Part shown: piece by piece, positions 7,024 through 31,970 of the stretch
How positions within the stretch are numbered: the stretch's first letter is position 1
Layout of the letters: each line of letters opens with the position of its first letter
From: Acutalibacteraceae bacterium
GTDB lineage: Bacteria > Bacillota > Clostridia > Oscillospirales > Acutalibacteraceae
NCBI GenBank assembly: GCA_045221075.1
Contig: JBGUWL010000147.1
Location: 1-60,302 of the forward strand
Length of the DNA: 60,302 bases
Reading direction: 5' to 3'
The notes under the pieces: generated by a model
Databases searched by the model: none
Told to the model about the DNA's origin: nothing
Seen by the model: only the letters and a program-made list of their open reading frames with translations
Position numbers and translations under genes: made by a program

Positions 7024-8799
7024 TTACCGGAGTACCTGTACTTCCGGGGTGTCATAGCTGTCGCTTGCGCCGATCAGTTTTTTGAGATCAGCAGCTGAAG
7101 CGGTAAGGATGTTGTTGTCTGATGTAAGCTCAACGATCTCCGCCTTTGTGGACACATAGTACTCATAGGTGGTATTGGTACCATACCGTGTGTCCTTGTA
7201 GGTAAGGGTCATTGAATCATCGGTTATCTGCAGATTGCCGGTAACGGTAAAGTTGGGAGTAGCAGACTCACCGCCTACAGCAGTAAGCTGCGTTCCGCTT
7301 GAGCCATAACTGCTCATGGGGCTGGACATATTGTTGGAAAGGGTAAAGTCGCCTGTGCCGGTATCTCTTACGAATGTGGTGCTGCCGGTAACAAGCAGGC
7401 CGGAATAGGTGATGACATACTTGTCAACGGAAGAGTCGCTCTCGTCGGTAAGGACTGCGGACTGTACGGTCACATCGTTGCCGTTTGATCCGGTAAGAGC
7501 CTTGACGGTGATCTTCTTTGAGTTTTCGGGATCTGCGCCGTAGGTCATGACGAGCTTCATGGTCTGACCGTTAGCTTCAACAATGAATTCGGCCTGCATA
7601 AGCGCGCCGTTCTTGTTGGTATAGTGCTTAAGTGTGACCTTTACGCCGCCCAGACCGTTTGCAGAGCTGAGAAGCTGCTGGAGATCCACCTTTGAAAGAG
7701 CCTCGTCAATGGCAAGATTGATCTGGCCGTTGATGTTTACGTTGCTTCTTACCCAGTCGGTAAAGTGACCGTAAACGGTAGTGATTATATCGGTATTCTC
7801 AAAGGTGTGGGTGATAACATAAGCGTCGGTCTGTGTGCCGTCGATGTCGGCCTTCTCCTCGCTGACGCTGACGTTGCCGCACTTGTCAAAGTCCTCACAG
7901 AGGGTCTTTCCGAAGGCTTCAAGACCAAAGGGATCCTCAGCCTTGAGGTTTTTGAAGACATACTCATAGACATCCATAAAGGTATCGTACTGAGTGCGGT
8001 TGATGTTGAGGATGTTTTCTCCCTCGGGACCGAAGGCGGAATTGAGTGCGTTCTCTCTCAGTCCTTCATAGTCAAGGTAATAGTCAAAAGACTTTCCGTT
8101 GTAGTCGGCCTTAATAACGCCTCTGTCAAGGGTGGAGTAGAACTCTCCTGTGGCATCAGTATAATCCTCCCCGAAGTCAGGGCTATACTTAATGTTCTGC
8201 TTTACATAGAATTTGTTGTTCACACCGTCAACAGAGAACAAGGTCATGTTGGTGGAGTAATCGTTAGTAACGGTAAGACGGGTGGTCTTCTGTTTGGTGC
8301 TGCTGTCGGCAAAAGTCTTGGTCAGCTTGTTGTTTCCGGCAAGGGAAGCGGCGGTAGTGCGGTAGGAATCCGCAACGTACTTTGTGGGGTCGTCCTTGAT
8401 CTTGCCCAGGGCCATGGAGCTGAGAATAGCCCGTACAACGAAGAAGGTGGCAATGCCCAGAGCGATCACACCGGCAATTACAATAAGCCAGATGATCAGC
8501 TTCTTGTGGCTCTTTTTTGCCACAACGTCTGACATTGTATATTCCTGATATCTGGACTGGTCATTGTTTATTTCGTTCATCTGGTCGGCAGAAAGCACAG
8601 GGGTCTGGTTATAGAAATTATCCTGTCCTGCGCCCTGAGGGTACATAGGCTGAGCCGGATTAGGCTGAGCCGGATTAGGCTGGGCCTGGGTCTGGCCGTT
8701 TGAAAACTCCGGAGAAGAAATGTCCGGAATGAAAGTTCCGCAGCTGCTGCAATAACGGAATGAGGGGTCGTTATCCTTTCCGCATTTTGGACAAAACAT
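7024..8799 (-). CDS. Zinc-ribbon membrane protein with a large extracytoplasmic domain (function unknown)
   Basis: SD AAAGGAG. The N-terminus CPKCGKDNDPSFRYCSSCG is a zinc ribbon. Then an AQPNP repeat low-complexity region and one TM (LIIWLIVIAGVIALGIATFFVV), followed by about 460 aa outside. Confidence 0.7.
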   Translation of the reverse strand: MFCPKCGKDNDPSFRYCSSCGTFIPDISSPEFSNGQTQAQPNPAQPNPAQPMYPQGAGQDNFYNQTPVLSADQMNEINNDQSRYQEYTMSDVVAKKSHKKLIIWLIVIAGVIALGIATFFVVRAILSSMALGKIKDDPTKYVADSYRTTAASLAGNNKLTKTFADSSTKQKTTRLTVTNDYSTNMTLFSVDGVNNKFYVKQNIKYSPDFGEDYTDATGEFYSTLDRGVIKADYNGKSFDYYLDYEGLRENALNSAFGPEGENILNINRTQYDTFMDVYEYVFKNLKAEDPFGLEAFGKTLCEDFDKCGNVSVSEEKADIDGTQTDAYVITHTFENTDIITTVYGHFTDWVRSNVNINGQINLAIDEALSKVDLQQLLSSANGLGGVKVTLKHYTNKNGALMQAEFIVEANGQTMKLVMTYGADPENSKKITVKALTGSNGNDVTVQSAVLTDESDSSVDKYVITYSGLLVTGSTTFVRDTGTGDFTLSNNMSSPMSSYGSSGTQLTAVGGESATPNFTVTGNLQITDDSMTLTYKDTRYGTNTTYEYYVSTKAEIVELTSDNNILTASAADLKKLIGASDSYDTPEVQVLR

Positions 8800-14776: not shown

Positions 14777-14807
14777 CAAAAAACAGCCGCACCCGAAGGT
14801 GCGGCTG
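14777..14807 (-). terminator. Terminator of the giant pilin-like gene
   Basis: Minor-strand read: CAGCCGCACC-TTCG-GGTGCGGCTG followed by TTTTTT. It lies 22 nt after the stop. Confidence 0.75.
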
Positions 14808-14828: not shown

Positions 14829-17800
14829 TCAGTTGCTGTACGTGGGTTTCTTAAGAGATCCGCCTGTGCCTGTACCGCCTTCGTTAGCAGTAGCACGGCC
14901 GATGTACTTAACATGGAGGAAGCTCTTCCAGTAAGTCTCGTCATAGAGATCCGCAATATACTTCGAGTTGTTGTTGCTCTTCTCAATGAGATACTTACCT
15001 TCACGGATACCGAAGTTATGGATCTTACCCATCTCATCACGGTACTTGACCGCGATGTCGGTCCTGAACTCTACAATCATACTGTTGGCAGTATTATCAC
15101 AGCTGTAGAGATAGAAGTGTGCTCTGTTAAGTGACTTTGAAGCACCGTCCAGTGTACCCTCAAATGCAAACTTGAACTCGGTTGCATACATCTTCACGGT
15201 AGGCTTGGTATAGAGAGGATCCGTAGAATCCCATCTGAAGCTAAGACCCTTGTTAGAGAAGAAGTCATAACGAATGGTAGAAGCTGCGAGGTTACCGCTG
15301 TCAGCAGTGATGTTGACATAGGATCCGTTGGGTGCAGTATTTGTACCGGACTGGAAGGTGAATCCGTTGTGCCATGTTGTAGAAGCGTCAAATACTTTTC
15401 CTGCTCCGATAGTCTTTCCATTAAGATCAGCCTCGCCCTCCACATAGTCACCTATGTTCTTGGACTGGGTGAAGTAGTTCTTTGCAGCCTGGCTGAACAG
15501 GTTGATCTTTCCGCTACCATATACAGGTGAGTCTTCATTCTGCTTAACATCGGCATTATCGAAGAAGTAGGAGCCTGCCTTGATAACATAGGAATCACCG
15601 CCAAAAAGTTCAACTGTTGCCGTGGTGTTGAACAGAAGAGTCATAGACTGATAGGTATTGCTGGAGCTCTTCTTCATGTTGTACATCTGGGTTTCAGAAG
15701 CAGTATCCTGAACAAAGATATCCGTTGTGATCTCACGGTAGTCAGAGGTTGTATTCTTTGACCAGTAGGGGTTGCTGGCAGTGTCAACATAAACCCATAC
15801 TTCATCCATATTGATCTCACTCTTGGACTTGCCGCAGGGTTTATAGGAGGAATCTGTACGGCTCTTTTCCAGGAACTCTACGTTGTAGATGGTGTCTACG
15901 CCGGGATGCAGGGTGATACAGGGATATCTTTCGGGGTTGTACTCTGTCAGCTTTTCTTCCTTGAAACCGGTAACAGAAGAAGAAAGGGTATAACGTACCT
16001 TGAAGTTAGAGCCTTCATCGACCTTCTTCTGGGCATCGTAGAATATCAGGATGATACCGCCTTCAGATTCTGTCTCAAGTCCGTCTATTGCTCTCTTAAG
16101 ATTATCAATTGCAGATATGAGCTGAGCGTTGGTGCTGTCGTTGAGGAAGACTTCTTCTGCAGCAGCCATCTTTCTCTTGAGAGACTCCATAGAGTCATTG
16201 GTGTACCTTCTTGACATAAGACCGCTGGCAAGGTATTCGGGATAATTTCCTCCGCCGCCGCCGTGGATCTTATGGTTAGTCATATAGCTATTACTCAGAG
16301 GAGCGGAAATAGCAGATCTGGCGTCTCCAAGCAAACTATACAGTGTGGTATAGTTTGTGAGCCTTGCTTCGATAGTGTTCAGCGCACTATATGCATCGCC
16401 CTCTGACCAGCTATCAACATTTGTGGTAATAAAGAATGTACCGCCTGATGTCTCCTTGATCGTTGAATAATTGCTGTACATATTAAGCAGACCATTGGAA
16501 TAGTAACGCTGTGAGGAAGAAGAAATACCGCCTTCATCGTTGTACTGACCGATAAGGTTGCAGCCATAGTAGCTGGAACGCAGCTTCTGAATGGCCTTTT
16601 TCAGTTTCATCTGGTCAGATTCAAATTCCACCCATGCACCCTTTGCGCCGTATTCGTCATCAGCCTCGGGATCAAAGAGAAGCATAGAACCTCCGCGGAG
16701 TGATGTTTTGAATTCCATCGGTGTGGATGTACCGCCTTCTGCGGGCTTATTAACATTAAAGGTAATGAAGGGAGAATTCTTCGAAATATTATTGAGATAA
16801 TAATAATTCGTATGACCGTATCTTGTAAGATGGTTGGTCATATTAACGGGCTGAGGATCACTGATGAAAGGTCCGTTTACCGTAGCGGTGAGGTTTGACC
16901 ATCCTTCGGGCAGTCTGAAATATACAGTCAGATTATCACCGATCTGATCCTCTTCCGGATCAAAGGTGTAGAGGTTGAGATTCTGATAGTGACCTGAGCC
17001 GCCGTTGTAGTTTGAAAGCATTTCAAGCCATACGTCTCCCACCGCATTCTTCACTATCTTGGTCTGGGTGGTCGGACTGGAGGGGTTCATACCGGTAAGG
17101 GTAAAGGTATAGGTTGCTTTTGAAGATACGGGGATCTTGAAGTCATACCAGTCAAAGTAGGGGCTGAGATCAGCAAGACCGAGACGTCCGTCGGACTCTT
17201 CGTTTCCGTTGGTACCGCCGAAGCGGTTGCCTGAACCGATTATATGTTTGTTGGAGTTCAGCTTGTTACCCTCGCCGTATACATCCATATAAGACTTATT
17301 CTGTACACGGACCTTGAATCCACCTACAAACGCCATCTTATAATCTGTTGCGTTATAGTCGGCTTCGTTAACTCCGGGCTGGCTATAGGTTCCGCCGCCT
17401 GTACCGCCGGTGCTGCCGCCGGTGCCTCCGGGATTGCCGCTGGGCCACGGCTGCATATCATGAGCGCTGCCCGATCCGCCGGTAAAGTAGTAGCCGTTGC
17501 CAACTGTAAAGGATATATCCTTTGTCTGCTTATCGGATGTACCGTTGTTTACGACAAATTTCTTTGCAGCAGCAGGAGGCTTGATCTTATAAACGGTCTG
17601 GTTATACTCATTGGTCTTATAAACTTCGGTAAGTTGATAGCCCGGGAAGGCCGCGCCTACTGTTGTGCCATCAAAGAAATAGATATGAAGGTTCTCAAAG
17701 TTGTAGTTGTTAGTAATGTAGATATAGTCATCTGCATAAGTTACATCCGGTGTAACGACCTGGTTGGCGATTTTTACAGAGCCGACGGTGTGTTTACCGC

Positions 17801-20800
17801 CTGACGTACCGTTTTTATAAAAATCAAACCCGTTCATCTTACCGTTTTCAATGTCAATATTTACTGTCTGCTTGCCGTTATTATTATTATTGAAGATCAC
17901 ATACTTTGCGCCTGAAGGAGGAATAACCTTATAGATTTTCTGTCCTTGATCGTTAGTCTTGAAAAATTCAACACTTCTGCCCGGCCAGTCATATCCGAAC
18001 TTATTTTCACCGTTCCAGAAATATGCTTTTACGGTTCCATACAGACCATAGCCGTCATCATTATCGGTAAAGTAGATATAGTCACCGTCTGCATACATAT
18101 CACCGATAAGAAGGTCATCTTCATTTGCAAGAGTGGGTTCGGGCTCGGGCTCGGGATCCTCCGGAGGAGCCTCTACCACGCCGTACTTGGGATAAACATC
18201 ATCGGTAGGAATAACTGTGGGAGCTTCGGTGCCGATATTTCTGTCAAGGAAGATATACTCACCGGGTTCAAGCTTTCCGACAGTATAGGGTACTATTTCA
18301 GGATCACCGCCTGTAGCAGAGCCTGTTACGGTAGATATCTTGAATTCGCTGTTCTTATACTCCTGAACATAAACATACTTGAATACAGTGTAGGGATCTT
18401 CAAATGTAGACATTACCAGTTCATCGTTGATCTCGCCTCTTAAAGCGTCACCCTGAAGTGTTGAATAAACGGTAACCATTTTTCCGAAGGAGACAACGTT
18501 AATGTCATTGATAACAGCCACAAGATTATCGTCTGCAACGTTGCTGAGTTTTATGGTTGAGCCGGCAGTAACGCCACTTGGAAGAATAACCTTTACGGCA
18601 ACACTGCTGTACAGTTCTTTACTGATATCCACATAACTGCACTTATATTCGGGCTTGCCCCATGATACGAAATCAGTATCATCAGCGGGAGTAGAGGTCA
18701 TTGAACCTTCGGGATAACGTTCAACGGTCATTCCGTTGGTACCAACGGAATTGTCAATGATCCAGAGTCTGACGCTCTTATTTTCAGTTTTGATCTGAGA
18801 GATAGTGCCCGCAGGCTTCTTAATGGTATAAGCCTTGATTGCAGCATCAAGTTTATCTGCAAGTGCATTAAGCTCTGACTGGGTGGTAACACCGCCTGAC
18901 TTGCCGCTTACTGCATCCGAAACAGCTTTGTCAAGTGCTGTAAAGGTATCTTCTGTGCAGTCGACCTTTTCGGGATTCTCCGCAGTAGGCAGAAGGGTTC
19001 TTGCCTGGTCGATGAGAGGATCAATAACAGATGTATCAAGTGACACAACGGCATGCTCAGTCAGTGCAGTATACTTGTCCTGAAGATTATTCTTTGCGTT
19101 ATCGATAGCTGTCTGACTTGTAAACTTCAGATTCTTTGCAGCTCTTGCCTCATCGTAAGCAGTCTTGAATTCTGAAAGATAAGGCTCCTCAAAATCTGAA
19201 GAGGTTTTGTTATAGAACTCGAAAGTAAGGTCAAGGAGAGCCTTCAGATCGTTCCTGTAGATCCTTGAGTTGTTCATCAACTGAAGATCCTGGGACAGAG
19301 CTGTACATACGCTGTTTACTTCCTCGATCGTAGTACTGGAGTAATCAGCCTGAATCGTCTTTGCACGCTGGTATGCGGAGGGCTCAGGAGTACCTTCGCC
19401 TATAAATTTCTTGTAGGTATCATAGTCGAAGGAACCGTTTGCTTCCATTGCGGTCACGGTATTGTCACCGGATACAACAAGGCTGTTGAGCCATGTAAGA
19501 TCATCACCGGTAACACCGCGGGGTACGAGCTTGTGTTCACCTGTACCGTTAATAATGTCAAGGATGACTTTTTCAGCTGCATAATACTTTTCATCAGCCT
19601 GCTGGATCCTCAGGGAATCTGTAGGACCGGGCTGATTGACAATGAAGTTCTTATCATCAAGAAGAGCACGAGCGGCAATAATCGCATCGGTCAGATACTG
19701 GAAAGACTCGGGTGTATACTCGTTGGGGTCATAACGTCCTGCCTCTGAACAGGTTTTGTTCAGAGCGTTACGGCCGCTGGTGGAGTTAAGACCAACATCA
19801 CCATAGCGGACACTGGGTGTTGCCTTTGTGGTGAAGTCGGCGATCTTTGCATGGATGGTTACATATTCATCCTTGCTTCTGTTTTTGCCAAGAGATGTCA
19901 TTGCATCGTTCTCAGAGCTGTATTTCTCAAGGCTGGAGCCGTTAAAAACAAAGAAGAACTCTTTGTGCTCTGAGCTGTTCTCAATACCGTAAGCGGACTT
20001 TGCGGATCCCACGGCGGAAAATGTAATATTGAAGTCTTTGTTTGTTTCTATATTTGCTGCCCACCAACCGCAGCCTTCGTACTCCATGGTAATGGGGCCG
20101 GCAGTTTTGTTGCCGGAATGGAGGAAGCTCTGGCCTGTGATTGCAGATCCGTCTGCATTGGCATAAGAAACAGAGGGAGCCGCAATGGAGGGTGTAACTG
20201 CATTGTCATCGATTCCCTTCATACGGAAGTGTACGGTTGTCTTGGGGTTCTTTACATATACAAGAACGGTGTCTTCAAGACCCTTCTTTCCGTCCCAACC
20301 GGGGCCCTTGAAATACTGGGTGTAATAGGTTCCGTTAGGTCCGCCGGACTTGGGTGTGTCAAAGAACTCAAAGTAGATGTTTCTGTCGCTGGAGTCAAGG
20401 TACCACAGATGGAACATTTCGTTGGTCTGTGAGTCATAGACGTTCCATGCGCCGCCCGTTGTTCCGGGAGGACAGAGAAGTGAGCCCTGACGTGCGAAAA
20501 TGATATTGAACCACGGAACCAGTCCGGGTTTAACGAAATACTCACCTGTGAACCAGCCGTTACCCATATCGGCAAGAATACCGTTAGGACCCTGCTGGAG
20601 CTTTTTGGATTCGTCATCGGTGAGACGCCACTCTGCATTAGGCTTTACTGCCTCGCTGGAGGTATCATCGTTGAGCTTTTGGACCTCATTTCTGCTTTTT
20701 ATAACAGAGTCATAGAAATAGCTGTTGTCGCCGTTGCTTTCATCGTAATCTCTGTAAACACCGTTATCCACATCATCACGGTATGTCCAGATGTAGTAAG

Positions 20801-21380
20801 TAAGCTCATAGTCCATGCCTGTGGGCTTTTTAACGTTAAGGGTAATACTCGGATCATATCCGTCGCTGCCCTTGCCGCGTGATCCCGGGGGGATCGTAAG
20901 TCTGTTGGGGCCTGAGGAACCAACAGTAAAGGAGACGGAGAGACGAGCCATCTTATTCTTGTTGCCATAGGCATCGGAATAGCGGCTGTATGCCGTCATG
21001 TGAAGTGTGGCAGGATTGGAGTTCACGGCCTGAACGAACTCAACATGAACGTATGTTACAGCGTTTTTGGTTTCGTTAACGTTCTTGGTAATATCAGCGC
21101 CCTGTGAAGTGGTACCGCTGGGATCTTTCATTACCATGTACTCAACAGAAATGGTTGAATAATCATCGACATTTGTCGAATAGTAAGACCGGGCATATTC
21201 CAACGCGCTCTTTACATTCATATAAGCCTGTCTTCCGCTGATATCAACCGATGTTGTCGACATACTGTTAAGTGCGATAAACAGAAGCGAACTTGATATC
21301 AGTATCAGAAAGCAGCTTATTGCAATGGCAAGCGGCAAGGAAAAACCCTTTTTACTGTTTTTTACAACAGTATTCTGCAT
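14829..21380 (-). CDS. Giant (2183-aa) modular pilin-like protein; putative pilus-tip adhesin with CBM25/26-like and FIVAR-like modules
   Basis: The N-terminus KKG|FSLPLAIAISCFLILISSSLLFIAL is a prepilin-type leader plus hydrophobic helix, with Leu instead of Glu at +5. It starts 25 nt after the second minor pilin gene. Internal modules are described in the findings. Confidence 0.8.
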   Translation of the reverse strand: MQNTVVKNSKKGFSLPLAIAISCFLILISSSLLFIALNSMSTTSVDISGRQAYMNVKSALEYARSYYSTNVDDYSTISVEYMVMKDPSGTTSQGADITKNVNETKNAVTYVHVEFVQAVNSNPATLHMTAYSRYSDAYGNKNKMARLSVSFTVGSSGPNRLTIPPGSRGKGSDGYDPSITLNVKKPTGMDYELTYYIWTYRDDVDNGVYRDYDESNGDNSYFYDSVIKSRNEVQKLNDDTSSEAVKPNAEWRLTDDESKKLQQGPNGILADMGNGWFTGEYFVKPGLVPWFNIIFARQGSLLCPPGTTGGAWNVYDSQTNEMFHLWYLDSSDRNIYFEFFDTPKSGGPNGTYYTQYFKGPGWDGKKGLEDTVLVYVKNPKTTVHFRMKGIDDNAVTPSIAAPSVSYANADGSAITGQSFLHSGNKTAGPITMEYEGCGWWAANIETNKDFNITFSAVGSAKSAYGIENSSEHKEFFFVFNGSSLEKYSSENDAMTSLGKNRSKDEYVTIHAKIADFTTKATPSVRYGDVGLNSTSGRNALNKTCSEAGRYDPNEYTPESFQYLTDAIIAARALLDDKNFIVNQPGPTDSLRIQQADEKYYAAEKVILDIINGTGEHKLVPRGVTGDDLTWLNSLVVSGDNTVTAMEANGSFDYDTYKKFIGEGTPEPSAYQRAKTIQADYSSTTIEEVNSVCTALSQDLQLMNNSRIYRNDLKALLDLTFEFYNKTSSDFEEPYLSEFKTAYDEARAAKNLKFTSQTAIDNAKNNLQDKYTALTEHAVVSLDTSVIDPLIDQARTLLPTAENPEKVDCTEDTFTALDKAVSDAVSGKSGGVTTQSELNALADKLDAAIKAYTIKKPAGTISQIKTENKSVRLWIIDNSVGTNGMTVERYPEGSMTSTPADDTDFVSWGKPEYKCSYVDISKELYSSVAVKVILPSGVTAGSTIKLSNVADDNLVAVINDINVVSFGKMVTVYSTLQGDALRGEINDELVMSTFEDPYTVFKYVYVQEYKNSEFKISTVTGSATGGDPEIVPYTVGKLEPGEYIFLDRNIGTEAPTVIPTDDVYPKYGVVEAPPEDPEPEPEPTLANEDDLLIGDMYADGDYIYFTDNDDGYGLYGTVKAYFWNGENKFGYDWPGRSVEFFKTNDQGQKIYKVIPPSGAKYVIFNNNNNGKQTVNIDIENGKMNGFDFYKNGTSGGKHTVGSVKIANQVVTPDVTYADDYIYITNNYNFENLHIYFFDGTTVGAAFPGYQLTEVYKTNEYNQTVYKIKPPAAAKKFVVNNGTSDKQTKDISFTVGNGYYFTGGSGSAHDMQPWPSGNPGGTGGSTGGTGGGTYSQPGVNEADYNATDYKMAFVGGFKVRVQNKSYMDVYGEGNKLNSNKHIIGSGNRFGGTNGNEESDGRLGLADLSPYFDWYDFKIPVSSKATYTFTLTGMNPSSPTTQTKIVKNAVGDVWLEMLSNYNGGSGHYQNLNLYTFDPEEDQIGDNLTVYFRLPEGWSNLTATVNGPFISDPQPVNMTNHLTRYGHTNYYYLNNISKNSPFITFNVNKPAEGGTSTPMEFKTSLRGGSMLLFDPEADDEYGAKGAWVEFESDQMKLKKAIQKLRSSYYGCNLIGQYNDEGGISSSSQRYYSNGLLNMYSNYSTIKETSGGTFFITTNVDSWSEGDAYSALNTIEARLTNYTTLYSLLGDARSAISAPLSNSYMTNHKIHGGGGGNYPEYLASGLMSRRYTNDSMESLKRKMAAAEEVFLNDSTNAQLISAIDNLKRAIDGLETESEGGIILIFYDAQKKVDEGSNFKVRYTLSSSVTGFKEEKLTEYNPERYPCITLHPGVDTIYNVEFLEKSRTDSSYKPCGKSKSEINMDEVWVYVDTASNPYWSKNTTSDYREITTDIFVQDTASETQMYNMKKSSSNTYQSMTLLFNTTATVELFGGDSYVIKAGSYFFDNADVKQNEDSPVYGSGKINLFSQAAKNYFTQSKNIGDYVEGEADLNGKTIGAGKVFDASTTWHNGFTFQSGTNTAPNGSYVNITADSGNLAASTIRYDFFSNKGLSFRWDSTDPLYTKPTVKMYATEFKFAFEGTLDGASKSLNRAHFYLYSCDNTANSMIVEFRTDIAVKYRDEMGKIHNFGIREGKYLIEKSNNNSKYIADLYDETYWKSFLHVKYIGRATANEGGTGTGGSLKKPTYSN

Positions 21381-21405
21381 TCATAAAACCCCTTTCTTTA
21401 TGATT

Positions 21406-22014
21406 TTACTGAACAAAAGCTATAGCCTTTGTTGTACTGTCATTCTCGATCTTACATACATCACCGACATCATCAAACGAAGTGTTTATCTGGGTCATAG
21501 GAGTATCGGAATCCGCATTGTTCATAACGATGGTTCCGTCAAGCTTATAACCCTCGTTCATCTCGATCACATAATCGACGTACATGAAGCACTTTTCGGA
21601 CAACGAATCATCCTTCTGAGGCTTATGCTTCTTGACCTGTACCTGAACACTCTTTGCCTTATGATAGGAGATCGTCGTTACAACGGGAGGCTGTCCGATA
21701 GCGGTAACCTCACTTCTCACGGTCTTCAATGTTCCGTCGTTATCAAAATAAATGTAATACGCTGAGACATCGTTCAGCGGAACGGAACTGGAATTGACAA
21801 GGGACACTGAAGCGCCTACCTTTGATGCGCTGAGAAGAAAATCCTCTATTTCAAGGGCGTTATCCTGTTCGGTTGAGGTTGTCTGTGCAGTGGAGTAATT
21901 CTTGATAGCCTGCGCCACCATGCCGACTCCCAGTCCGGCAACAATACTGAGCACGCCTATGGTAACTACAAGCTCTACGAGAGTAAAACCACTCTTAGAT
22001 CTGAATTTGTTCAT
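21406..22014 (-). CDS. Minor pilin (prepilin-type N-terminal cleavage/methylation domain)
   Basis: The N-terminus MNKFRSKSG|FTLVELVVTIGVLSIVAG has the canonical G/F-x-x-x-E motif. Confidence 0.8.
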   Translation of the reverse strand: MNKFRSKSGFTLVELVVTIGVLSIVAGLGVGMVAQAIKNYSTAQTTSTEQDNALEIEDFLLSASKVGASVSLVNSSSVPLNDVSAYYIYFDNDGTLKTVRSEVTAIGQPPVVTTISYHKAKSVQVQVKKHKPQKDDSLSEKCFMYVDYVIEMNEGYKLDGTIVMNNADSDTPMTQINTSFDDVGDVCKIENDSTTKAIAFVQ

Positions 22015-22032: not shown

Positions 22033-22578
22033 TCAGCCCGGATCCTGGTGCTCATAGGGAATGAACGAATGGTTCACCAAGGATCCCCTTGAACTGTAAA
22101 CATAAGACTGAACATAGATTCCCTTTATGGTGTACTGTTTTGCGCCCTTCTGCACCTTGCTGGATGCATCAAGATCGATGGTGTACTGTGTCTCTACTCC
22201 TGCAGCAGGGAATACATTCTTGTCATAGTAAAGAACAGTGCTGTCGAAAGTCTTTGCAGCAGCGTGTACAGCATTGCCCGGATCCGAATTCGGGCTCTTG
22301 TTGCTGGCAGCGCCGAAGAAATACTCCTGAGCCTCTGCCTTATCGTAGAATCCCAGCTCGCTGATGCTCTGAAACAGAAGTTCATTCAGCGAACCGCCTT
22401 CAACAGCGCTTTTGTTCACGTCTGCATTATAGAGAGTTGTCGAGTAGCCGTTTGTCATTGCGCTGAGAGTTGATCCAAAAACAATGACAATGATAGTTAT
22501 GCCGACAACAAGCTCTACCAGAGACATACCTTTTTTGGAACGCAGCTTCGGGATCTTTTGCCGTAATCTTTTTTTCAT
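22033..22578 (-). CDS. Minor pilin (prepilin-type N-terminal cleavage/methylation domain)
   Basis: The N-terminus ...LRSKKG|MSLVELVVGITIIVIVFG has Glu5 present. Confidence 0.8.
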   Translation of the reverse strand: MKKRLRQKIPKLRSKKGMSLVELVVGITIIVIVFGSTLSAMTNGYSTTLYNADVNKSAVEGGSLNELLFQSISELGFYDKAEAQEYFFGAASNKSPNSDPGNAVHAAAKTFDSTVLYYDKNVFPAAGVETQYTIDLDASSKVQKGAKQYTIKGIYVQSYVYSSRGSLVNHSFIPYEHQDPG

Positions 22579-22894: not shown

Positions 22895-24151
22895 CTATGA
22901 GGCTGCGGAATCGGCTGCGCCGCCAACCAGACTGTACATACCGAACATGGGAAGGATCATGGAGATTACCAGTGTTGCAACAACTACACCAATAACAACA
23001 GTCATGATAGGAGTCATCATGTCAGTAAGCTTCTGGGTAGACTCATCTGTCTGGGATTCAAACAGATCAGCCATCTTGTGAAGTGAATCGCCAAGCATAC
23101 CGGATTCCTCACCGACTCGGATCATCGAAACGAGGATCGCATCAAAAACAGGATGCTTTGCCATAGCGTCGTGAATGGTAACACCGATCTGTACGTCGTC
23201 AAGGACTGCCTGGACCTTTTCACGGACAAACAGGTTAGGAACAACGTCTCTTGCAAGACCCATGGCCTTATGGATCGGGATACCGGCATCTGTCAGAGTT
23301 GACATCAGTCGGCAGAACCTTGCAAGGGAACTCTGACGGATAATGGGACCAACAAGCGGGATCTTAAGCTGAACCTTCGCCCATCCCATGGCAAAATCCG
23401 CATTGGTTTTCTTCAATGTTCTGAGTCCGATAACGATACCGGCTATAACAATGATTATCAGCCACCACCAATTTATAAGCAGGTCTGAGAAGCCCATCAT
23501 GAACTTTGTAAGTCCCGGCAGATCGCCGCCGAAGGCCTCATAAACGCCCGCAAAGGTGGGAAGAACGAATACTGTAAGGATGATAACAACGATAATAACG
23601 AGAGCCATCAGGAAAGCAGGATACATAAGAGCGCCTCTGATCTTACCGGTCAGAGCCATATCCTTCTTACATATCAATGCGCACTGCTCAAAGGCTTCGT
23701 CAAGTCGACCGTTTGCCTCACCGGCTTCAACAATGCTGATATAGATAGGGGGGAAACCGGCAAAGTTTCTCATTGCCTGAGAGAGAGTAAAACCACTGTA
23801 GAGATTCTCGTTGATCTCTCGGAGGATCTTTCTCATGCTGACGTCCTTTTCGGAGTCGATCATGATCTGCATCGAAAGAGACAGGTTGATACCGGCCTTC
23901 ATCATCATACCCAGCTGGTTCATAATCATAAGAAGCTTCTTGGGTTTAATCTTTTTGGTATGGATATCGCCGCCCAGGTCCATCTGCCAGATACTGGTGG
24001 GTTCATCATCTCCGCCGCCGACGCCGACGAGGTCCTGAACAACGAGTCCTTTTTCACGGAGTATATTGGTAGCCTCGGCCTGGGAATCAGCTTCGATGGT
24101 ACCTTCTTTTTTCTGGTTTCTGGCGTTCATCGCCACATATTTATACTTCAA
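22895..24151 (-). CDS. pilC: Type IV pilus platform protein PilC (T2SS F family)
   Basis: 418 aa. It has duplicated GspF-type domains and three TM regions, and sits after pilT/pilB. Confidence 0.9.
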   Translation of the reverse strand: MKYKYVAMNARNQKKEGTIEADSQAEATNILREKGLVVQDLVGVGGGDDEPTSIWQMDLGGDIHTKKIKPKKLLMIMNQLGMMMKAGINLSLSMQIMIDSEKDVSMRKILREINENLYSGFTLSQAMRNFAGFPPIYISIVEAGEANGRLDEAFEQCALICKKDMALTGKIRGALMYPAFLMALVIIVVIILTVFVLPTFAGVYEAFGGDLPGLTKFMMGFSDLLINWWWLIIIVIAGIVIGLRTLKKTNADFAMGWAKVQLKIPLVGPIIRQSSLARFCRLMSTLTDAGIPIHKAMGLARDVVPNLFVREKVQAVLDDVQIGVTIHDAMAKHPVFDAILVSMIRVGEESGMLGDSLHKMADLFESQTDESTQKLTDMMTPIMTVVIGVVVATLVISMILPMFGMYSLVGGAADSAAS

Positions 24152-24165
24152 AGCTTTTCACTCCC

Positions 24166-25212
24166 TTATCTTCTTGCGTCAGTATCGCCGATATCAAAGT
24201 TCCATGCTCTTGCGATCTGTTCGGTGATAAGTCCCTGAGCAAGGAGGTTATCGATACTCTTGCTCATGGTGATCATACCGTACTGCTGACCAAGCTGGAT
24301 AGACTGCTGGATATTTGCTATCTTGTTTTCACGGATAAGGTTACTTATAGCGGTGGTAACGAACATGATCTCAAACGCAGCAACACGTCCGCCGGTTGCA
24401 CGGGGAAGAAGTCTCTGAGAGATAACAGCCTTAAGTGAAGTAGAAAGCTGTACACGGATCTGCTGCTGCTGATCCGGCGGGAAGATATCAACAAGACGGT
24501 CGATGGTCTTTGCAGCACCCTCTGTATGTACGGTTGAGAATACAAGGTGACCTGTCTCGGTTGCGGTAAGGGCGATCTGGATTGACTCACGGTCACGCAT
24601 CTCACCTACGAGGATGATATCGGGGTCCTCACGCATTGCAGCACGAAGAGCCATAGGATACGAACGGCTGTCAAGACCGATCTCTCTCTGGTTAATAATG
24701 CAGCGCTTGGGGGTATGAAGGAACTCAACAGGGTCTTCAATAGTGATAATATGGCGGCTCTTGTACTTGTTGATCTCATTGATAAGAGCAGCCAGAGTTG
24801 TAGATTTACCGGAACCGGTAGGTCCGCACATCAGAACAAGACCAGAGTTAAGGTCAAGGGTCTTTCTGATGGAATTCGGCAGGTTGAGGGTCGAAAGCTC
24901 AGGAACCACGCTGTTGATAACACGAAGTACAAGAGCTGTGCCGTTACGCTGTCTGAAAGCGTTGGCTCTGAAACGGCCGCACTCACCGATCTCTACGGCG
25001 GCGTCGGCCTCACCTGTCTGAAGGAAGGTCTCAAATCTTGACTTGTTGAGCACCGCCTTGATAATAGCGGTTACCTCTGCTTCATTCAGCGCAGGGTCAT
25101 TGGTAAAGAACACATTACCATGAAGACGATAAGCCGGATGGTTACCGGATGCAATATGAATGTCGGAAGCACCCTTTGTTACGGCTTCTTTGACAAGGCT
25201 GTAAAAATCCAC
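24166..25212 (-). CDS. pilT: Twitching-motility retraction ATPase PilT
   Basis: 348 aa with a GTG start. Motifs are ASDIHI, Walker A GPTGSGKSTT and GHLVFSTVHT, with PilT-size architecture and no N-terminal extension. Confidence 0.88.
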   Translation of the reverse strand: MDFYSLVKEAVTKGASDIHIASGNHPAYRLHGNVFFTNDPALNEAEVTAIIKAVLNKSRFETFLQTGEADAAVEIGECGRFRANAFRQRNGTALVLRVINSVVPELSTLNLPNSIRKTLDLNSGLVLMCGPTGSGKSTTLAALINEINKYKSRHIITIEDPVEFLHTPKRCIINQREIGLDSRSYPMALRAAMREDPDIILVGEMRDRESIQIALTATETGHLVFSTVHTEGAAKTIDRLVDIFPPDQQQQIRVQLSTSLKAVISQRLLPRATGGRVAAFEIMFVTTAISNLIRENKIANIQQSIQLGQQYGMITMSKSIDNLLAQGLITEQIARAWNFDIGDTDARR

Positions 25213-25327: not shown

Positions 25328-27034
25328 TCAGTCTGTGTTATTGATGGTCATATCAACAAACTCTTCATAGGAGGTAAGTCCCTGAAGAACGTTTCGTCTT
25401 ACGTTTTCCTTCATCGGTATCATGCCCTCTTTTAAGGCCAACTCACGGATCTCGTCAGTACTCTTGTTTTCCGTAATGGCACGCTTAAGAGTGGTTGTGA
25501 GCAGCATGATCTCATGAACGGCGATACGTCCCTTATAACCCTTTTTGTTGCATTTCTCGCAGCCTTTTCTGCGATAGAGGGTGATATCCTCATTCTGATC
25601 AAGGTTAAGAGCGATCCGCTCATTCTGATCCGGCGTGTAAGCCTCTTTACATTCAACGCAGAGACGACGCGCCAGTTTCTGAGCGATAATACCGAGAAGA
25701 GCAGAGGAAACCATGTAAGGTTCAATTCCCATATCTACAAGACGCGCCACAGAGCTGGGGGCGTCGTAGGTATGCAGTGTTGAAAGAACCAAGTGACCTG
25801 TGATAGCTGCCTGTACCGCAATACCGGCGGTCTCACCGTCACGGATCTCACCGACCATGATGATATCGGGGTCCTGACGAAGAATGCTTCGCAGGGCTGC
25901 CGCAAAGGTCATGCCGGCTTTTTCGTTGGTTTGAACCTGGGTGATTCCTTCCTGCAGCATTTCGACAGGGTCCTCAACCGTGATGATATTGATATCTTCA
26001 CTTTTGACCTCATTGAGAGCCGTATAAAGGGTCGTCGATTTACCGGAACCGGTAGCACCGGTTACAAGGATGATTCCACGGTTACTTTTGATAAGATGGT
26101 TGAATTTTTCAAGGTTCTCCGGCAGGAAGCCTATGCTTTCCTTTTTAAGCTCCATGCCGAGAGAGGTGGTAATACGCATAACGATCTTCTCACCATATAC
26201 GCTGGGGAGAACCGAAATACGGAAGTCTATTTCTTTTCCTGCAACACGGTAGTTAATACGACCGTCCTGAGGAATACGTTTTTCTGCGATGTTCATGTTA
26301 CCGATGAACTTGATACGGGATGTTACCGAGGGGATGAGCTCAGGGCTTGTCTCCATATAGATCTGCAGCTTACCGTCGATACGGAAGCGGATCCTCAGGC
26401 ATTTTTCCATAGGCTCCACATGAATATCGGAGCATTTTGCAAAGATAGCCTCTTCGATCATGGTATTTACAAAACGGATGATAGGCTGGTCATTACCGTT
26501 GGCATCCTGTTTTGCAGCCTCTTCAGCCTCCTGCTGAGCCTTGGATTTACCGCCCTTTGACTCAAGGAATTCCTTTGCGTCATCGATAGCCTTCTGGGCG
26601 GCATAAAGCTCACGGAGCTTTGCCGAGATCTTTGAAGGTTCGGCGATGACCGGCTGGATCTTCAACTTAGTGGCAATGGATATATCCTTGATTCCTTTAT
26701 AGTTAAGGGGATCGCCGATGGCAACGGTGAGGATACGTCCTTCCTGTTCGATAGGAACGACCATATTCTTCTGAGCCATATCCTCAGGGATAAGGCCTCC
26801 CAGTTCATCGGGAATAGTAACTGAATCAAGATCAATGTAAGGCATAAAGAGCTGTTTTTCCAGCGCTCTGCACACCTGCTGCTCGGTTACTATCTTGTCT
26901 TCAATAAGAATGTCGGCAATACGGCGTTTTTCATCAGAGCTACGCTGTTTTTCCAGCACAGCCTCAAGCTGTTCTTCCGTAATGTCGCCAGAATTGATCA
27001 AAATTTGTCCGATTTTCAAGTTGCCGGCTTTCAT
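25328..27034 (-). CDS. pilB: Type IV pilus assembly ATPase PilB (GspE family) with an MshEN-like N-domain
   Basis: 568 aa with AAGGAG SD. Motifs are Walker A GATGSGKST and the C-terminal tetracysteine CVECK...CEKC. The N-terminal tandem 24-aa motifs are described in the findings. Confidence 0.9.
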   Translation of the reverse strand: MKAGNLKIGQILINSGDITEEQLEAVLEKQRSSDEKRRIADILIEDKIVTEQQVCRALEKQLFMPYIDLDSVTIPDELGGLIPEDMAQKNMVVPIEQEGRILTVAIGDPLNYKGIKDISIATKLKIQPVIAEPSKISAKLRELYAAQKAIDDAKEFLESKGGKSKAQQEAEEAAKQDANGNDQPIIRFVNTMIEEAIFAKCSDIHVEPMEKCLRIRFRIDGKLQIYMETSPELIPSVTSRIKFIGNMNIAEKRIPQDGRINYRVAGKEIDFRISVLPSVYGEKIVMRITTSLGMELKKESIGFLPENLEKFNHLIKSNRGIILVTGATGSGKSTTLYTALNEVKSEDINIITVEDPVEMLQEGITQVQTNEKAGMTFAAALRSILRQDPDIIMVGEIRDGETAGIAVQAAITGHLVLSTLHTYDAPSSVARLVDMGIEPYMVSSALLGIIAQKLARRLCVECKEAYTPDQNERIALNLDQNEDITLYRRKGCEKCNKKGYKGRIAVHEIMLLTTTLKRAITENKSTDEIRELALKEGMIPMKENVRRNVLQGLTSYEEFVDMTINNTD

Positions 27035-27058: not shown

Positions 27059-28000
27059 TTAGAATAGTTTCAGATACATTTCAACTAAGCCAAAAATAAA
27101 GTCATAAAAACAAACATAGCATATCAGCGAAAATGTGATATAAGGACCAAAGGCGAGGTACGAACCGCCCGAGGTCTCCTCCTGTGTATCCGCAGAAGTC
27201 TGCTCTCCGGCATCAGTCTCCGCTTCCACGGCAGCGGCAGCATCCTTCACGGAAACGCTTGCTTTTGTGTCACCGTCAGCGGTACCCTCTGGGTCAGCAT
27301 CATCAGCCGCAGACTGATCCTGCTGAGGAGCTTTCCTGCCGATTATGCGGACCACGATCAGTATCACCACAAAACATATCATTGCGCTTATCATAGATAT
27401 GATAAACGACAGTATGGTTCCGGGAAAACCCGTTGCAATACCGACGGCCGCAAAGAGCTTTACGTCTCCGAAGCCCATTCCGCCTCGCTTGTATACTAAC
27501 ATTCCGATAAGGTCAATAAATATCATGACCCCGGCGCCAATAGCGGCACCCGCCAGAGGTGACCACCAGGCGGTATGGAGTATGCCGTAGCCCCTTGCGA
27601 TGTCATAAATGCTTATGGCAAGGGCAAGCAATCCCAGTGCTATGGTGAACTGGTCCGGAATGATGGTATATTTGATATCACAGATAGCTATCATAAGGGA
27701 TACTATTATCATCAGTGAGAAAACCACAAAATAGATATCGTAGCCCTTGTTGAACTGCAGCCTGCAGCAAACCAGGCAGACGGCAGTCACTATGGACATA
27801 ACAATACCCGATCCGGCATATCTGACACGGTTTCCGGAGAGAAGCTCCGGCGAAGGGGTCTCGTTGTAATCGCACAGCCATTTGGCCGGGATACGGTTGA
27901 TGACCCTGTAGTACAGCCATGTCAGGAGCACGCCGGACAGGACACAGACGGCAGTCCATATAACGCCGGCTGTGCTTGTCAGGTATTCAAAAGGCTGCAT
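27059..28000 (-). CDS. pilD: Prepilin peptidase PilD (peptidase A24)
   Basis: Polytopic membrane protein. Aspartate motifs are IIPDQF and GMGFGDVKL, with C-terminal AFGPYI. It contains a 58-aa acidic insertion. Confidence 0.85.
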   Translation of the reverse strand: MQPFEYLTSTAGVIWTAVCVLSGVLLTWLYYRVINRIPAKWLCDYNETPSPELLSGNRVRYAGSGIVMSIVTAVCLVCCRLQFNKGYDIYFVVFSLMIIVSLMIAICDIKYTIIPDQFTIALGLLALAISIYDIARGYGILHTAWWSPLAGAAIGAGVMIFIDLIGMLVYKRGGMGFGDVKLFAAVGIATGFPGTILSFIISMISAMICFVVILIVVRIIGRKAPQQDQSAADDADPEGTADGDTKASVSVKDAAAAVEAETDAGEQTSADTQEETSGGSYLAFGPYITFSLICYVCFYDFIFGLVEMYLKLF

Positions 28001-28021: not shown

Positions 28022-28702
28022 TCAGGTTGAGCTTTGGGAAGAAGATACAGCCGCCTCAAGATCAACCATCTCAAAGTAATACAGACTCATGGAAACCGTA
28101 TAGTCATACTTTGCGGTCTTGCTGGTTGTGGTAGCAACACTGGTCACTGAATTATCTTCTCCGGAAGTGGTGCCGGCAGCGGAATTGCTGGCGATGTAAG
28201 GCTCTGCATCGATTCCGTTGATGTAGTATGCACCGTCGGCCTTCAGCTCAAGATAATCGAGAGACTTCTTAAGGTCTTCCTTTGTTCCCGAGAATCTGAA
28301 GTTGATGCTGGTTGAGAAAAGACGTCCGCCTTCAACGGTAGTTCTTCCAAGAGCGTCCTCGTTACCTGTGCTGATAGACAGCGAGGTGATCTCGAACTTG
28401 AGATTCTTGAGGATGGATCTGATCTCGTTAGGAGTCTTGGTAGCGTTTGAATAGAGGATGGGGTTCTTTTTCTGATATTCTTCCATCATGCTGGCGATAT
28501 TGCTCTCAACAGTGGCAGAATTGTCCAGATAAGAATTGTAGTAATTGATCTTGCTTGTGGCAGAAGCATGGTTGTCCTGATAACCGTCATAATTCTGTAT
28601 AAAGGGTACCTGCACAGCGATCAGAAAGATGATACTCATTACCAGTATGACCGCTATTGCAATAATAAAGCCTGAAATTTTGAGCTGCTTTTTATTATTC
28701 AT
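28022..28702 (-). CDS. PilO-like bitopic pilus assembly protein
   Basis: GGAGGT SD. It has a short cytoplasmic N-terminus, one TM (ISGFIIAIAVILVMSIIFLIAV) and a ~170-aa outside domain. The call rests on position between pilM/N and pilD, with no motif-level support. Confidence 0.5.
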   Translation of the reverse strand: MNNKKQLKISGFIIAIAVILVMSIIFLIAVQVPFIQNYDGYQDNHASATSKINYYNSYLDNSATVESNIASMMEEYQKKNPILYSNATKTPNEIRSILKNLKFEITSLSISTGNEDALGRTTVEGGRLFSTSINFRFSGTKEDLKKSLDYLELKADGAYYINGIDAEPYIASNSAAGTTSGEDNSVTSVATTTSKTAKYDYTVSMSLYYFEMVDLEAAVSSSQSST

Positions 28703-28785
28703 TATTGTTTACCTCCGTCAAGAATTGATCTTTGCTTTAGATCCTTTGGGCTTTCCGATGTGAAACCGTTCCGTCAGTCAGTCCG

Positions 28786-30636: not shown

Positions 30637-30913
30637 AAACACACCACACTCTTAAAAATTTTGTACGATTGTTGTTGTTTCATCCGACAAATATCAGAAC
30701 CGCATCATGCTCTGCAAAAGCCGCAGGACATAGGTGCAGTTATAATATCCCTTTTGTTATCTTATCACAAAAAAATATATATTTCAATAATTAATTTTTG
30801 ATTCTTGGTATTTTGTGCATATAGTTAGTTTTTAAAGCTATTATTTATGCAATAAGACACCTGACTATGTTTTTTCCCACAAACAGACACGGACCTTTCT
30901 GTTTTGTCTTGTT

Positions 30914-30981: not shown

Positions 30982-31464
30982 TTATTTGTAACCAAGATCA
31001 GACATCTTTGTGGTCAGAGCAACTACGTTAGTAGCAGCTGCGGGCTTGCCGCTGTCGTCCTTACCATAGATTGTGCCGGTGTTCTTGTCATAAACGAAGT
31101 CGCCAACCTTGCCCTTAAGGGTATCAAGACCTGCATAGGTGATAGCGTCGGTAACAGTAAGAGCCAGAGCCTTGGTCTTCTTTGCAGAAGCGGAAGCATT
31201 GGCAGGCGGCAGACCGGTGAAGGCCTTGGGTGAGCTGGAGTTCAGAGTGCCTGAAACAACTTCAGCGTACATGTCCTTGCATGCGTTACTGAGTGAAGAA
31301 GCGTCTGACTTCTGCTGTGATTCGTTAGCGCTGTTGATGATACCGATAACTGCGGGGATAGCGATTGCAGCCAGGATACCGAGGATAGCGATAACAACTA
31401 CGAGTTCAACGAGGGTGAAACCTTTTTTGCTCTGCTTAGCGAGCAGTTTCTGCTGGAGAGTCAT
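30982..31464 (-). CDS. pilA: Type IV major pilin (paralog 1)
   Basis: The N-terminus MTLQQKLLAKQSKKG|FTLVELVVVIAILGILAAIAIPAV is a canonical class III signal peptide. 160 aa, monocistronic, with its own promoter and terminator. Confidence 0.88.
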   Translation of the reverse strand: MTLQQKLLAKQSKKGFTLVELVVVIAILGILAAIAIPAVIGIINSANESQQKSDASSLSNACKDMYAEVVSGTLNSSSPKAFTGLPPANASASAKKTKALALTVTDAITYAGLDTLKGKVGDFVYDKNTGTIYGKDDSGKPAAATNVVALTTKMSDLGYK

Positions 31465-31548
31465 GATGAATTACCTCTTTCTTTAATAAATTTTTTTTTC
31501 GAACCCGATCCTCTGAAGGGTGGAGCACCGTGTTCATTTGTTGATTAT

Positions 31549-31577
31549 ATATTAACTCTTTATTAACAAAATGTCAA
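31549..31577 (-). promoter_or_regulatory. Candidate promoter of pilA1
   Basis: Minus strand reads TTGACA-N17-TAATAT, preceded by A-tract-rich DNA. The predicted leader is about 80 nt. Confidence 0.55.
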
Positions 31578-31962: not shown

Positions 31963-31970
31963 CTGCAGAT

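Follow-up and report, generated by a model that had tools for sequence, protein, structure and literature searches.

How does a protein of 2183 amino acids (aa) come to be encoded in a type IV pilus (T4P) operon, and what might it do there? The question is raised by a stretch of DNA from an uncultured Acutalibacteraceae bacterium of the rumen (GenBank assembly GCA_045221075.1, contig JBGUWL010000147.1), which was analysed over its whole length of 60,302 nucleotides (the window). A single uninterrupted open reading frame (ORF) with an ATG start occupies positions 14829..21380 of the minus strand and encodes what is called the giant protein below. An earlier note on this DNA, which gave these coordinates and no strand, had described a prepilin-type N-terminus without Glu at mature position 5 (Glu5), joined to a long adhesin-type extension with starch-binding modules. 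The ORF was confirmed, and this core claim is supported by the operon position, the leader, the predicted fold, the relatives of the protein and its two CBM26 modules. The reading favoured here, and judged reasonably probable, is that the giant protein belongs to a retractile Gram-positive T4P as a modular minor pilin of the cap type ('K-like') that has been hyper-expanded, and that it is probably located at the pilus tip as a starch adhesin.

The giant gene and its operon

Translation of 14829..21380 on the plus strand gave stops only, which places the ORF on the minus strand; unless a strand is given, all features described below are on the minus strand as well. A ribosome-binding site (AAAGGGG, 21389..21395) lies 8 nt upstream of the giant ATG, which itself is found 25 nt past the stop of the preceding minor pilin gene. 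At the other end, a terminator-like hairpin (14784..14807) with a 10-bp stem, eight GC pairs and a T-run is located 22 nt past the giant stop, and beyond it genes for RecG and a FakA/DAK2 kinase are encoded on the opposite strand. Because the terminator follows and the next genes run on the other strand, the giant ORF is the last gene of its operon. Eighty-six protein clusters of similar length were found. One of them is identical to the giant protein over its full length and lies on another public contig, and the other 85 (1300-2900 aa) are homologous to it over their length; the ORF is therefore not an assembly artefact. The mature protein, as computed from its sequence, is an acidic polypeptide of ~240 kDa with a pI of 4.9, rich in Ser, Thr, Asn and Gly.

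The operon has the order pilA-pilA-(pilMN-like)-(pilO-like)-pilD-pilB-pilT-pilC-minor pilin-minor pilin-giant. Directly upstream of the giant gene is a minor pilin gene of 202 aa (21406..22014) with the canonical signal G|FTLVE, preceded by another of 181 aa (22033..22578) with the canonical signal G|MSLVE. All four pilins upstream of the giant protein match the models of the N-terminal methylation motif (PF07963/TIGR02532), and the two small minor pilins gave at most alpha1N-level matches in the PDB. This layout is that of clostridial type IVa pilus clusters. There the machinery genes come before a set of three minor pilins, PilV/PilU/PilK in C. difficile, for which a tip complex has been proposed (PMC9556784; PMC6916266).

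Leader peptide and pilin-like module

The N-terminus of the giant protein reads MQNTVVKNSKKG|FSLPLAIAISCFLILISSSLLFIALNS (…SKKG|FSLPL…). The leader peptide MQNTVVKNSKKG (aa 1-12, 21345..21380) ends in Gly-1, and cleavage by PilD is predicted before Phe13. Its context, (S/R)K(K/S)G|(F/M)(T/S)L, is common to all five pilin-type proteins of the operon. In mature numbering, the next two residues are Pro4-Leu5 in the giant protein, whereas the four co-encoded pilins have Val4-Glu5. Profile-profile comparison placed the leader and alpha1N of the giant protein in register with both minor-pilin families (89% and 76% probability), with Gly-1 against Gly-1 and Leu5 against Glu5. Both observations of the earlier note on this region, a prepilin cleavage context with a hydrophobic helix and Leu instead of Glu at position +5, thus stand, the former on the sequence itself and on this common register.

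The same features recur in the relatives. In an alignment of 33 sequences, Gly-1, Leu3, Pro4 and Ala6 are invariant, no sequence has Glu5, and the hydrophobic stretch is followed by the motif RQAY(L)N(V)(K/R)SAL. Among 83 giants found by motif search, mature position 5 is occupied by V, L, M, A, I, F or T and never by Glu; 79 of them have Gly at position -1, and the remaining four have Ala. Of the traits of a type IV pilin, a short basic leader that ends in Gly-1 and precedes ~20 hydrophobic residues is present in the giant protein, while Glu at mature position 5 is replaced by Leu5, a known exception among cap subunits. The N-terminus is predicted to be a class III signal peptide, degenerate in the manner of cap subunits. 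Its hydrophobic stretch of ~27 aa continues into a longer predicted helix and is not followed by an A-x-A site.

A pilin-like module (aa 13-154, 20919..21344) is formed by the hydrophobic alpha1N, the remainder of this long helix and five beta-strands. It was modelled with AlphaFold2 as part of aa 1-560, using 35 aligned homologues, at a mean pLDDT of 74.6. The model contains a continuous 57-residue helix (aa 14-70) and strands at aa 79-84, 95-98, 109-116, 125-134 and 143-152, with a pLDDT of ~80-88 in this helix-strand part; a disordered linker (aa 155-175) and beta-rich modules up to ~aa 500 come after it. As modelled, the sequence of a helix and then five strands is the classical pilin order of elements.

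Starch-binding modules and conserved scaffold

The two tandem CBM25/26-like modules of the earlier note were identified as CBM26. Pfam model PF16738 matched two stretches of the giant protein at 43.8 bits, above its gathering cutoff of 28.1, and the borders of the modules were set with a custom hidden Markov model (HMM). Module a (aa 1096-1195, 17796..18095) keeps the YFW and WPG aromatics when aligned with Amy16, and module b (aa 1213-1303, 17472..17744) has Phe at both Trp positions (YFF and FPG). The conserved aromatics are taken here to be the residues of the binding platform. The modules are related to each other (96.9% in profile comparison), and the nearest solved relatives of the pair are found in R. 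bromii Amy16 (E 2.6e-11) and Amy10 (E 1.1e-7) and in E. rectale Amy13K (E 9e-4).

According to the family alignment, a family-variable middle region begins before the CBM26 pair with a beta-rich part (aa 881-1072, 18165..18740). It is followed by the linker PEDPEPEPEP (aa 1073-1082), which had been placed at about 18135..18170 and occupies 18135..18164. A Gly/Thr/Ser-rich linker (aa 1316-1331, 17388..17435) comes after the pair; it contains GGTGGSTGGTGGG (aa 1318-1330, 17391..17429), within the interval of about 17373..17447 that had been given for it.

Around the middle region lies a conserved scaffold. Its first part is a beta-rich region (aa 176-500, 19881..20855) with invariant aromatics, including YEGCGWW at aa 434-440. 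Foldseek returned weak beta-sandwich matches for it, the best being a PulA pullulanase chain (probability 0.95). Several modules with recurring G.GW(W/F)…FNI(I/T)F endings had been proposed; the motif was found only twice, at aa 273 and 436. The two GxGW…FNIxF modules were also considered as repeats, and this was ruled out by profile comparison, which found them unrelated.

The second part is a conserved helical block of FIVAR-like units (aa 535-880, 18741..19778). The helical units of the earlier note were recovered at aa 555-576, 833-851, 1726-1745 and 1754-1768, but their assignment to FIVAR stayed below the Pfam threshold: PF07554 scored 22.2 bits on aa 535-880 (E 2.3e-4), against a gathering cutoff of 29.2. 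A precomputed FIVAR match exists in ten homologues. When the whole-family profile was searched against the PDB, matches were confined to helical-repeat and helical-bundle proteins at this block, among them the hyalurononglucosaminidase chain 2jnk (E 4.7e-4), presumably a FIVAR module. One helical unit of the block recurs in the C-terminal region (88% in profile comparison).

The C-terminal region (aa 1340-2183, 14832..17363) is conserved and comprises several beta-sandwich domains and one helical domain. It had been listed as about 870 aa of unassigned sequence. It measures 844 aa and has no solved structural relative, but it is well folded in prediction (AlphaFold2 pLDDT 83, pTM 0.70), conserved in the family and, in its last ~260 aa, homologous to the C-terminus of short T4P-linked relatives. 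The core C-terminal module (aa 1873-2134, 14979..15764) is internally duplicated and homologous to the C-terminus of short and mid-size relatives. A Foldseek search of the C-terminal model against the PDB gave no relative at E<=1e-3 and no propeller among its matches; the best local likenesses were to CBM41 (probability 0.97) and CBM26. For both AlphaFold2 models taken together, local beta-sandwich likenesses to the PepT2 extracellular domain, PulA, CBM41 and CBM26 were obtained.

Of the checks that the earlier note had suggested, structure prediction gave models of both ends of the protein, without a Foldseek match at E<=1e-3; in the HMM searches CBM26 passed its threshold, FIVAR did not and no lectin model matched in Pfam or NCBIfam searches of the giant protein and 33 N-terminal fragments of relatives. 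No dockerin, cohesin, catalytic or PilY1 domain was found in the giant protein with Pfam at E<=1, nor an LPXTG motif, and neither the tapirin model (NF051896) nor any other NCBIfam model matched it at E<=0.1.

At its C-terminal end (14832..14915) the protein is rich in Gly, and an aromatic residue stands 3-5 positions before the terminus (…GGTGTGGSLKKPTYSN before the stop). Among the relatives sampled, whose lengths run from 500 to 4205 aa, nearly all have a Gly/Ser-rich tail with Tyr 3-5 residues from the end. AlphaFold2 leaves this tail unstructured, and it could serve as a docking strand for a partner pilin.

Distribution and origin of the family

Loci were scanned in one genome per GTDB species, which gave 54 loci with relatives of 2000-2900 aa. 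All of them derive from herbivore-gut metagenome-assembled genomes of uncultured Acutalibacteraceae, 'Ruminococcus' or Clostridia, and where a source is named it points to the rumen. The gene order of the operon recurs in most related genomes. Two minor pilin genes lie directly upstream of the giant gene in 34 of the 51 loci for which upstream sequence is available; the whole operon is syntenic in about 22 of these, and in three loci the minor pilins and the giant gene alone are kept together. At loci L036-L052 and L054 (for example L050, 9980..17392), from a clade of 2300-2700-aa members with G|I/V-S/T-L-P leaders, the giant gene stands alone among housekeeping genes.

At L001, the locus of the closest giant homologue, the giant protein is 45% identical to that of the window and the minor pilins are 44-53% identical, compared with 99% for PilT, 94% for PilB and 92% for PilC. 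The giant protein evolves fast, and rates differ sharply within one operon. Full-length alignments were made on subsets of 35 sequences. Conservation is confined to two parts of the protein: aa 1-880 and 1340-2170 can be aligned in essentially all of the 85 homologous clusters, and aa ~880-1340 in about a quarter of them. Pfam detected CBM26 in 16 of 44 species-level members; with the custom HMM the share is about 40%, at one to four copies, and the search for further Pfam families in the variable region found none. The middle part would be a lineage-variable payload. That the middle region is always CBM26 had been considered, as the majority consensus looked CBM-like; it was rejected on the same Pfam and custom HMM counts.

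More remote relatives were sought with the N-terminal module in an exhaustive HMM search of 1.84 billion representatives (E<=1e-3). It found 203 proteins, comprising distant giants of 1900-4205 aa and proteins of 500-950 aa. When the N-terminal profile was used in a word-indexed search, nothing but fragments of the giant family came back, and the short relatives were reached by the exhaustive search only. The proteins that share the N-terminal module include some larger than the giant protein, namely P0121 (4205 aa), P0125 (3313 aa; L059, 10001..19942) and P0137 (3285 aa). Almost all relatives are annotated as 'hypothetical protein'; the exceptions are a few short ones, to which their sources give the names PulK, 'Type 4 fimbrial biogenesis protein Pil…' and TadG-like. 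The short family is also present in cultured Caproiciproducens.

The surroundings of five distant relatives were looked up, and each of the five lies in a T4P context. P0170 (536 aa) lies beside pilA, pilMN, pilO, pilD, pilB, pilT and pilC; two small ORFs come next, of which one is weakly recognized as an N_methyl pilin. P0125 has the same arrangement, with a divergent cluster of T4P machinery on one side and two small pilins on the other. P0165 (620 aa) lies beside pilMN, pilO, pilD, pilB, pilT and pilC and is followed by one small ORF and the contig end. Two small ORFs, one of them an N_methyl pilin, also follow both P0144 (808 aa), which comes directly after pilC, and P0259 (2163 aa). Small ORFs therefore adjoin all five, with an N_methyl signature in four, and T4P machinery adjoins four.

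The short relatives are 500 aa long and the mid-size ones 800-900 aa; C. difficile PilK, at about 500 aa, has a size like that of the short relatives. Profile-profile comparison matched the N-terminus of the giant protein (aa ~6-157) to the short and mid-size families with 98.8% and 98.4% probability, and its C-terminus (aa 1873-2134) with 97.2% and 97.5% (E 4e-11 and 5e-12). The C-terminal core is thus common to 500-aa relatives without a CBM. As both ends are homologous to short T4P-linked proteins, the giant protein is read as an expanded form of a T4P-linked protein of ~500 aa. It looks, by these profiles, like an expanded cap-type minor pilin, and the best reading of the comparison is that ~1700 aa were inserted between the pilin module and the C-terminal module of its ancestor.

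Proposed mechanism and alternative explanations

Three published observations on other pili frame the proposed function. A K subunit without Glu5 caps the minor-pilin tip complex (PMC9934059). In the model proposed for S. sanguinis, PilA, which has no Glu5 and an 'uncommon Pro4', is the subunit that enters a tip-located complex first (PMC9934059). Finally, modular pilins present adhesive modules at the pilus tip (PMC8179133). In the proposed mechanism the giant protein is the final operon product to be made, its hydrophobic N-terminal helix would insert in the membrane and about 2150 aa would be exported. The co-encoded PilD would cut after Gly12. Through alpha1, the giant protein would then join the two small canonical minor pilins in a priming complex as the first and topmost subunit; without Glu5 and with its huge extension, it could only be the top subunit. 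PilB would polymerize the major pilins beneath it, so that the extension of roughly 13 domains reaches the pilus tip. There the two CBM26 modules would bind starch, and the cryptic beta-sandwich modules of the conserved scaffold may bind as well. Retraction driven by PilT would draw the cell onto the starch granule.

Two further genes of the window concern alpha-glucans. A 1295-aa MalQ-GlgP fusion (36337..40224) contains a GH77 4-alpha-glucanotransferase (aa 9-474) and a carbohydrate/glycogen phosphorylase (aa 588-1294), and its domain content fits a maltodextrin or starch specialist. A predicted lipoprotein of 243 aa (1025..1756) has the lipobox …SVSGC, an acidic linker of the form (TDEST)n and a single CBM26 (33 bits), and is probably a small membrane-tethered starch-binding protein. 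Together, the two genes fit an alpha-glucan specialist.

Several results weigh against the giant protein as a tip-located pilin and starch adhesin. The models PF07963 and TIGR02532 matched neither the giant protein at E<=1 nor any of 33 N-terminal fragments of the family at E<=10. T2SSK matched none of the 33 members and PilX_N matched one, at E 0.08; among short relatives PilX_N matched one of 19, at E 0.12. The assignment to a GspK/PilX-type cap made in the earlier note therefore stands as far as the missing Glu5 and the co-encoded minor pilins are concerned, but not at the level of sequence models. In the PDB, neither the N-terminal family profile nor the whole-protein sequence found anything. 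Foldseek, run there with the 560-aa N-terminal model, gave no match at E<=1e-3 and no type IV pilin or GspK among the matches listed. Since no pilin was matched, the pilin fold is read from secondary-structure order alone, and the small pilin-like globular part that had been proposed would correspond to the predicted helix and five strands. As for starch, module b has Phe for both Trp, and ~60% of family members are without a detectable CBM26, which rules out starch binding as what the conserved scaffold is for. In 17 loci (clade G|I/V-S/T-L-P, 2300-2700 aa), no pilin gene turned up within the 0.7-10 kb of available flank. Pushing a folded 240-kDa subunit through a Gram-positive cell wall would also be physically awkward.

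The want of a pilin or GspK model match, the 17 loci and the awkward size would all suit a membrane-anchored surface starch-binding protein that is never polymerized, an explanation considered rather unlikely. Its helix would be a signal anchor that either stays intact or is cleaved by PilD yet retained in the membrane, and its extension of ~2000 aa would reach through the wall and display the CBMs. Archaeal 'bindosome' sugar-binding proteins, which carry class III signal peptides, offer an analogy, and the small CBM26 lipoprotein suggests an organism that displays CBM26 on membrane-tethered proteins. However, an ordinary signal anchor needs neither the conserved Gly-1 (Ala in a few), Leu3 and Pro4 nor a register common to the co-encoded pilins. 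The gene also keeps a strict place, behind two minor pilins or, in distant relatives, immediately ahead of two, across size classes and gene orders, and a beta-strand module is predicted behind the alpha1 helix; all of this argues for the polymerized minor pilin. That the protein is secreted or released by means of an ordinary Sec signal peptide, as a starch-binding protein of many domains in a pilus neighbourhood that is coincidental, is regarded as very improbable. In favour of such a protein, no dockerin, cohesin, LPXTG or pilin model was found with Pfam, and the acidic, Ser/Thr/Asn/Gly-rich composition is like that of many secreted adhesins. Yet the hydrophobic stretch of ~27 aa, with its predicted continuation as a 57-residue helix, exceeds the length of a type I signal peptide, no A-x-A site comes after it, and dozens of genomes, as well as remote relatives, show the T4P linkage again.

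It is also conceivable, if improbable, that the giant protein does prime the pilus as a cap while its scaffold serves assembly or binds a target other than starch, such as plant cell wall, microbes or host mucus, with the CBM26 pair as interchangeable payload. The conservation of aa 1-880 and 1340-2170 in all 85 homologous clusters beside a variable CBM26 region, the minority of members with CBM26 and the C-terminal core of CBM-free 500-aa relatives would all agree with such a cap. The two CBM26 modules of the giant protein itself, on the other hand, score above threshold and resemble those of R. bromii amylases; the GH77-phosphorylase fusion and the CBM26 lipoprotein are consistent with a starch user; and the weak Foldseek likeness of the conserved beta-sandwiches to CBM41 and PulA points to alpha-glucans. 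A tip-located starch adhesin of the minor pilin type is accordingly preferred for the protein of this window.

Comparison with known systems

The giant protein resembles the K minor pilins (GspK, PilK and PilX) of the HIJK tip complex in type II secretion and type IVa pili: Glu5 is missing behind its prepilin-type leader, the subunit is bulky, other minor pilins are encoded beside it, and capping and priming of the filament are predicted for it (PMC9934059). It differs from GspK and PilX in having two partner minor pilins and not three, in its invariant Pro4, in being four to seven times larger and in matching none of their models. In GspK an alpha-domain is inserted in the pilin sheet, whereas the extra mass of the giant protein is a chain of domains after the pilin module.

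The T4P operon of S. sanguinis is likewise Gram-positive and encodes a set of three minor pilins, namely PilA, PilB and PilC, one of which, PilA, has Pro4 and no Glu5. Adhesive modules are grafted there on the pilin modules of the other two, a vWA domain in PilB and a lectin in PilC, and a tip location was argued from their bulk (Raynaud 2021 and Shahin 2023; PMC8179133; PMC9934059). In the present operon, by contrast, the subunit without Glu5 is itself modular, with at least 10 extra domains and a CBM26 pair as payload. With a pilin-like module (aa 13-154) and a non-pilus module (the two CBM26), it agrees with the definition of a modular pilin given by Raynaud et al. (2021). The largest protein noted in that survey, which was based on IPR012902, has 860 aa (PMC8179133); at 2183 aa, and set against the literature consulted, the giant protein would be the extreme case that the earlier note had supposed. 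The giant family was invisible to the 2021 census because an IPR012902-type motif is not matched.

Within the Clostridia, the pilV-pilU-pilK clusters of C. difficile and C. perfringens resemble the giant operon in kind, with pilA, pilB, pilC, pilMN and pilO and then three minor pilins (PMC9556784). PilY1/PilC of Gram-negative type IVa pili are also large (>1000 aa), modular tip adhesins borne by minor pilins, with a conserved carrier and a variable effector (PMC8179133). PilY1, however, is not a pilin and has a C-terminal beta-propeller, whereas the giant protein has its own pilin-like N-terminus and no PilY1 domain match.

Adhesion to polysaccharides has been tied to Gram-positive T4P in other fibre degraders, through the tapirins of Caldicellulosiruptor and the GP25/CbpC pili of R. 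albus (bioRxiv 10.1101/359786; PMC6916266). The tapirins are cellulose binders of ~600 aa encoded near and not within the minor pilin set, and their model does not match the giant protein. GP25 of R. albus is a major pilin; the giant protein is predicted to target starch, through CBM26. In R. bromii Amy16 and Amy10 and E. rectale Amy13K, CBM26 is carried on GH13 amylases that are dockerin- or wall-anchored, whereas the giant protein has no catalytic, dockerin or cohesin domain.

The giant protein would work like a K-type cap fused to a modular pilin. As the sequence-model tests fail, it is not assigned to the GspK/PilX or the canonical pilin families and is placed in a new family of the same functional kind. 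The available literature was searched for CBM26 with pilins, for R. bromii with type IV pili and for giant or large pilins, and no earlier description was found.

Implications

Small minor pilins are assumed in T4P biology, together with separate large tip adhesins (PilY1) in Gram-negative bacteria. A family of 2000-4200-aa proteins with a cap-type pilin module of their own would widen the idea of the modular pilin several-fold, and would raise the question of how such a subunit is primed, extruded through peptidoglycan and retracted. It is tentatively suggested that these proteins belong to an unrecognized class of 'mega-pilins' in Acutalibacteraceae and relatives, in which a cap-type core is split by insertions of 300 to >3500 aa (proteins of 500-4205 aa), and that in the rumen clade a 240-kDa subunit is assembled first, with the tip working as a grappling hook for starch granules. 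The core may consist of an N-terminal pilin module (Pro4, no Glu5) and a C-terminal double beta-module with a Gly-rich tail and a near-terminal Tyr. The size, the split-core architecture and the implied pilus-mediated adhesion to starch would be surprising to a specialist.

Censuses by motif, whether with IPR012902 or with PilFind-type rules, overlook every pilin without Glu5, and the giant family is thus invisible to them. If the proposal is true, a Gram-positive T4P machine exports and displays a subunit >10 times the normal pilin size, the retractile pilus bears a flexible tip of tens of nanometres, and a route of starch adhesion independent of amylosomes exists. For the relatives that R. 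bromii, the keystone degrader of starch, has in the rumen, the family points to attachment to starch by pili and not by amylosomes alone. The conserved scaffold of ~1700 aa, which has no solved structural relative, may also hold new carbohydrate-binding folds.

Other genes in the operon and the window

Most genes of the pilus machinery were identified by Pfam: pilC, encoding the platform protein (T2SSF, 22895..24151), pilB, encoding the extension ATPase (MshEN and T2SSE, 25328..27034), and pilD, encoding the prepilin peptidase (Peptidase_A24, 27059..28000). The PilT-type retraction ATPase (24166..25212) is 94-99% identical in nearly all related loci. Two genes encoding proteins of 226 and 618 aa (28022..30642) are placed by inference from their positions as pilO and fused pilMN, respectively. 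Neither protein has a Pfam or NCBIfam match, and a PDB sequence search with the 618-aa PilMN-like protein gave none; both are kept in related operons, at 34-77% identity.

The two major-type pilin genes (160 and 159 aa, 30982..32450) have the signal G|FTLVELVVVIAILGILAAIA, which reads G|FTLVELVV…, and are tandem paralogues with nearly identical alpha1N. They recall the PilE1/PilE2 heteropolymeric pili of S. sanguinis. PilD matches Peptidase_A24 only, and the N-terminal prepilin-peptidase domain family, which is commonly present in prepilin peptidases, gave no match in it. Its C-terminal part is broken by an acidic low-complexity stretch of ~60 aa (…QQDQSAADDADPEGTADGD…EETSGG).

Outside the operon, a 591-aa protein (7024..8799) has an N-terminal zinc-ribbon as its sole domain match. 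Four further genes, at 3588..5075 and 51593..53050 on the plus strand and at 53056..54216 and 56911..58044 on the minus strand, encode three D-alanyl-D-alanine carboxypeptidase paralogues of the Peptidase_S11 family and one protein of the serine beta-lactamase family within the 60 kb of the window.

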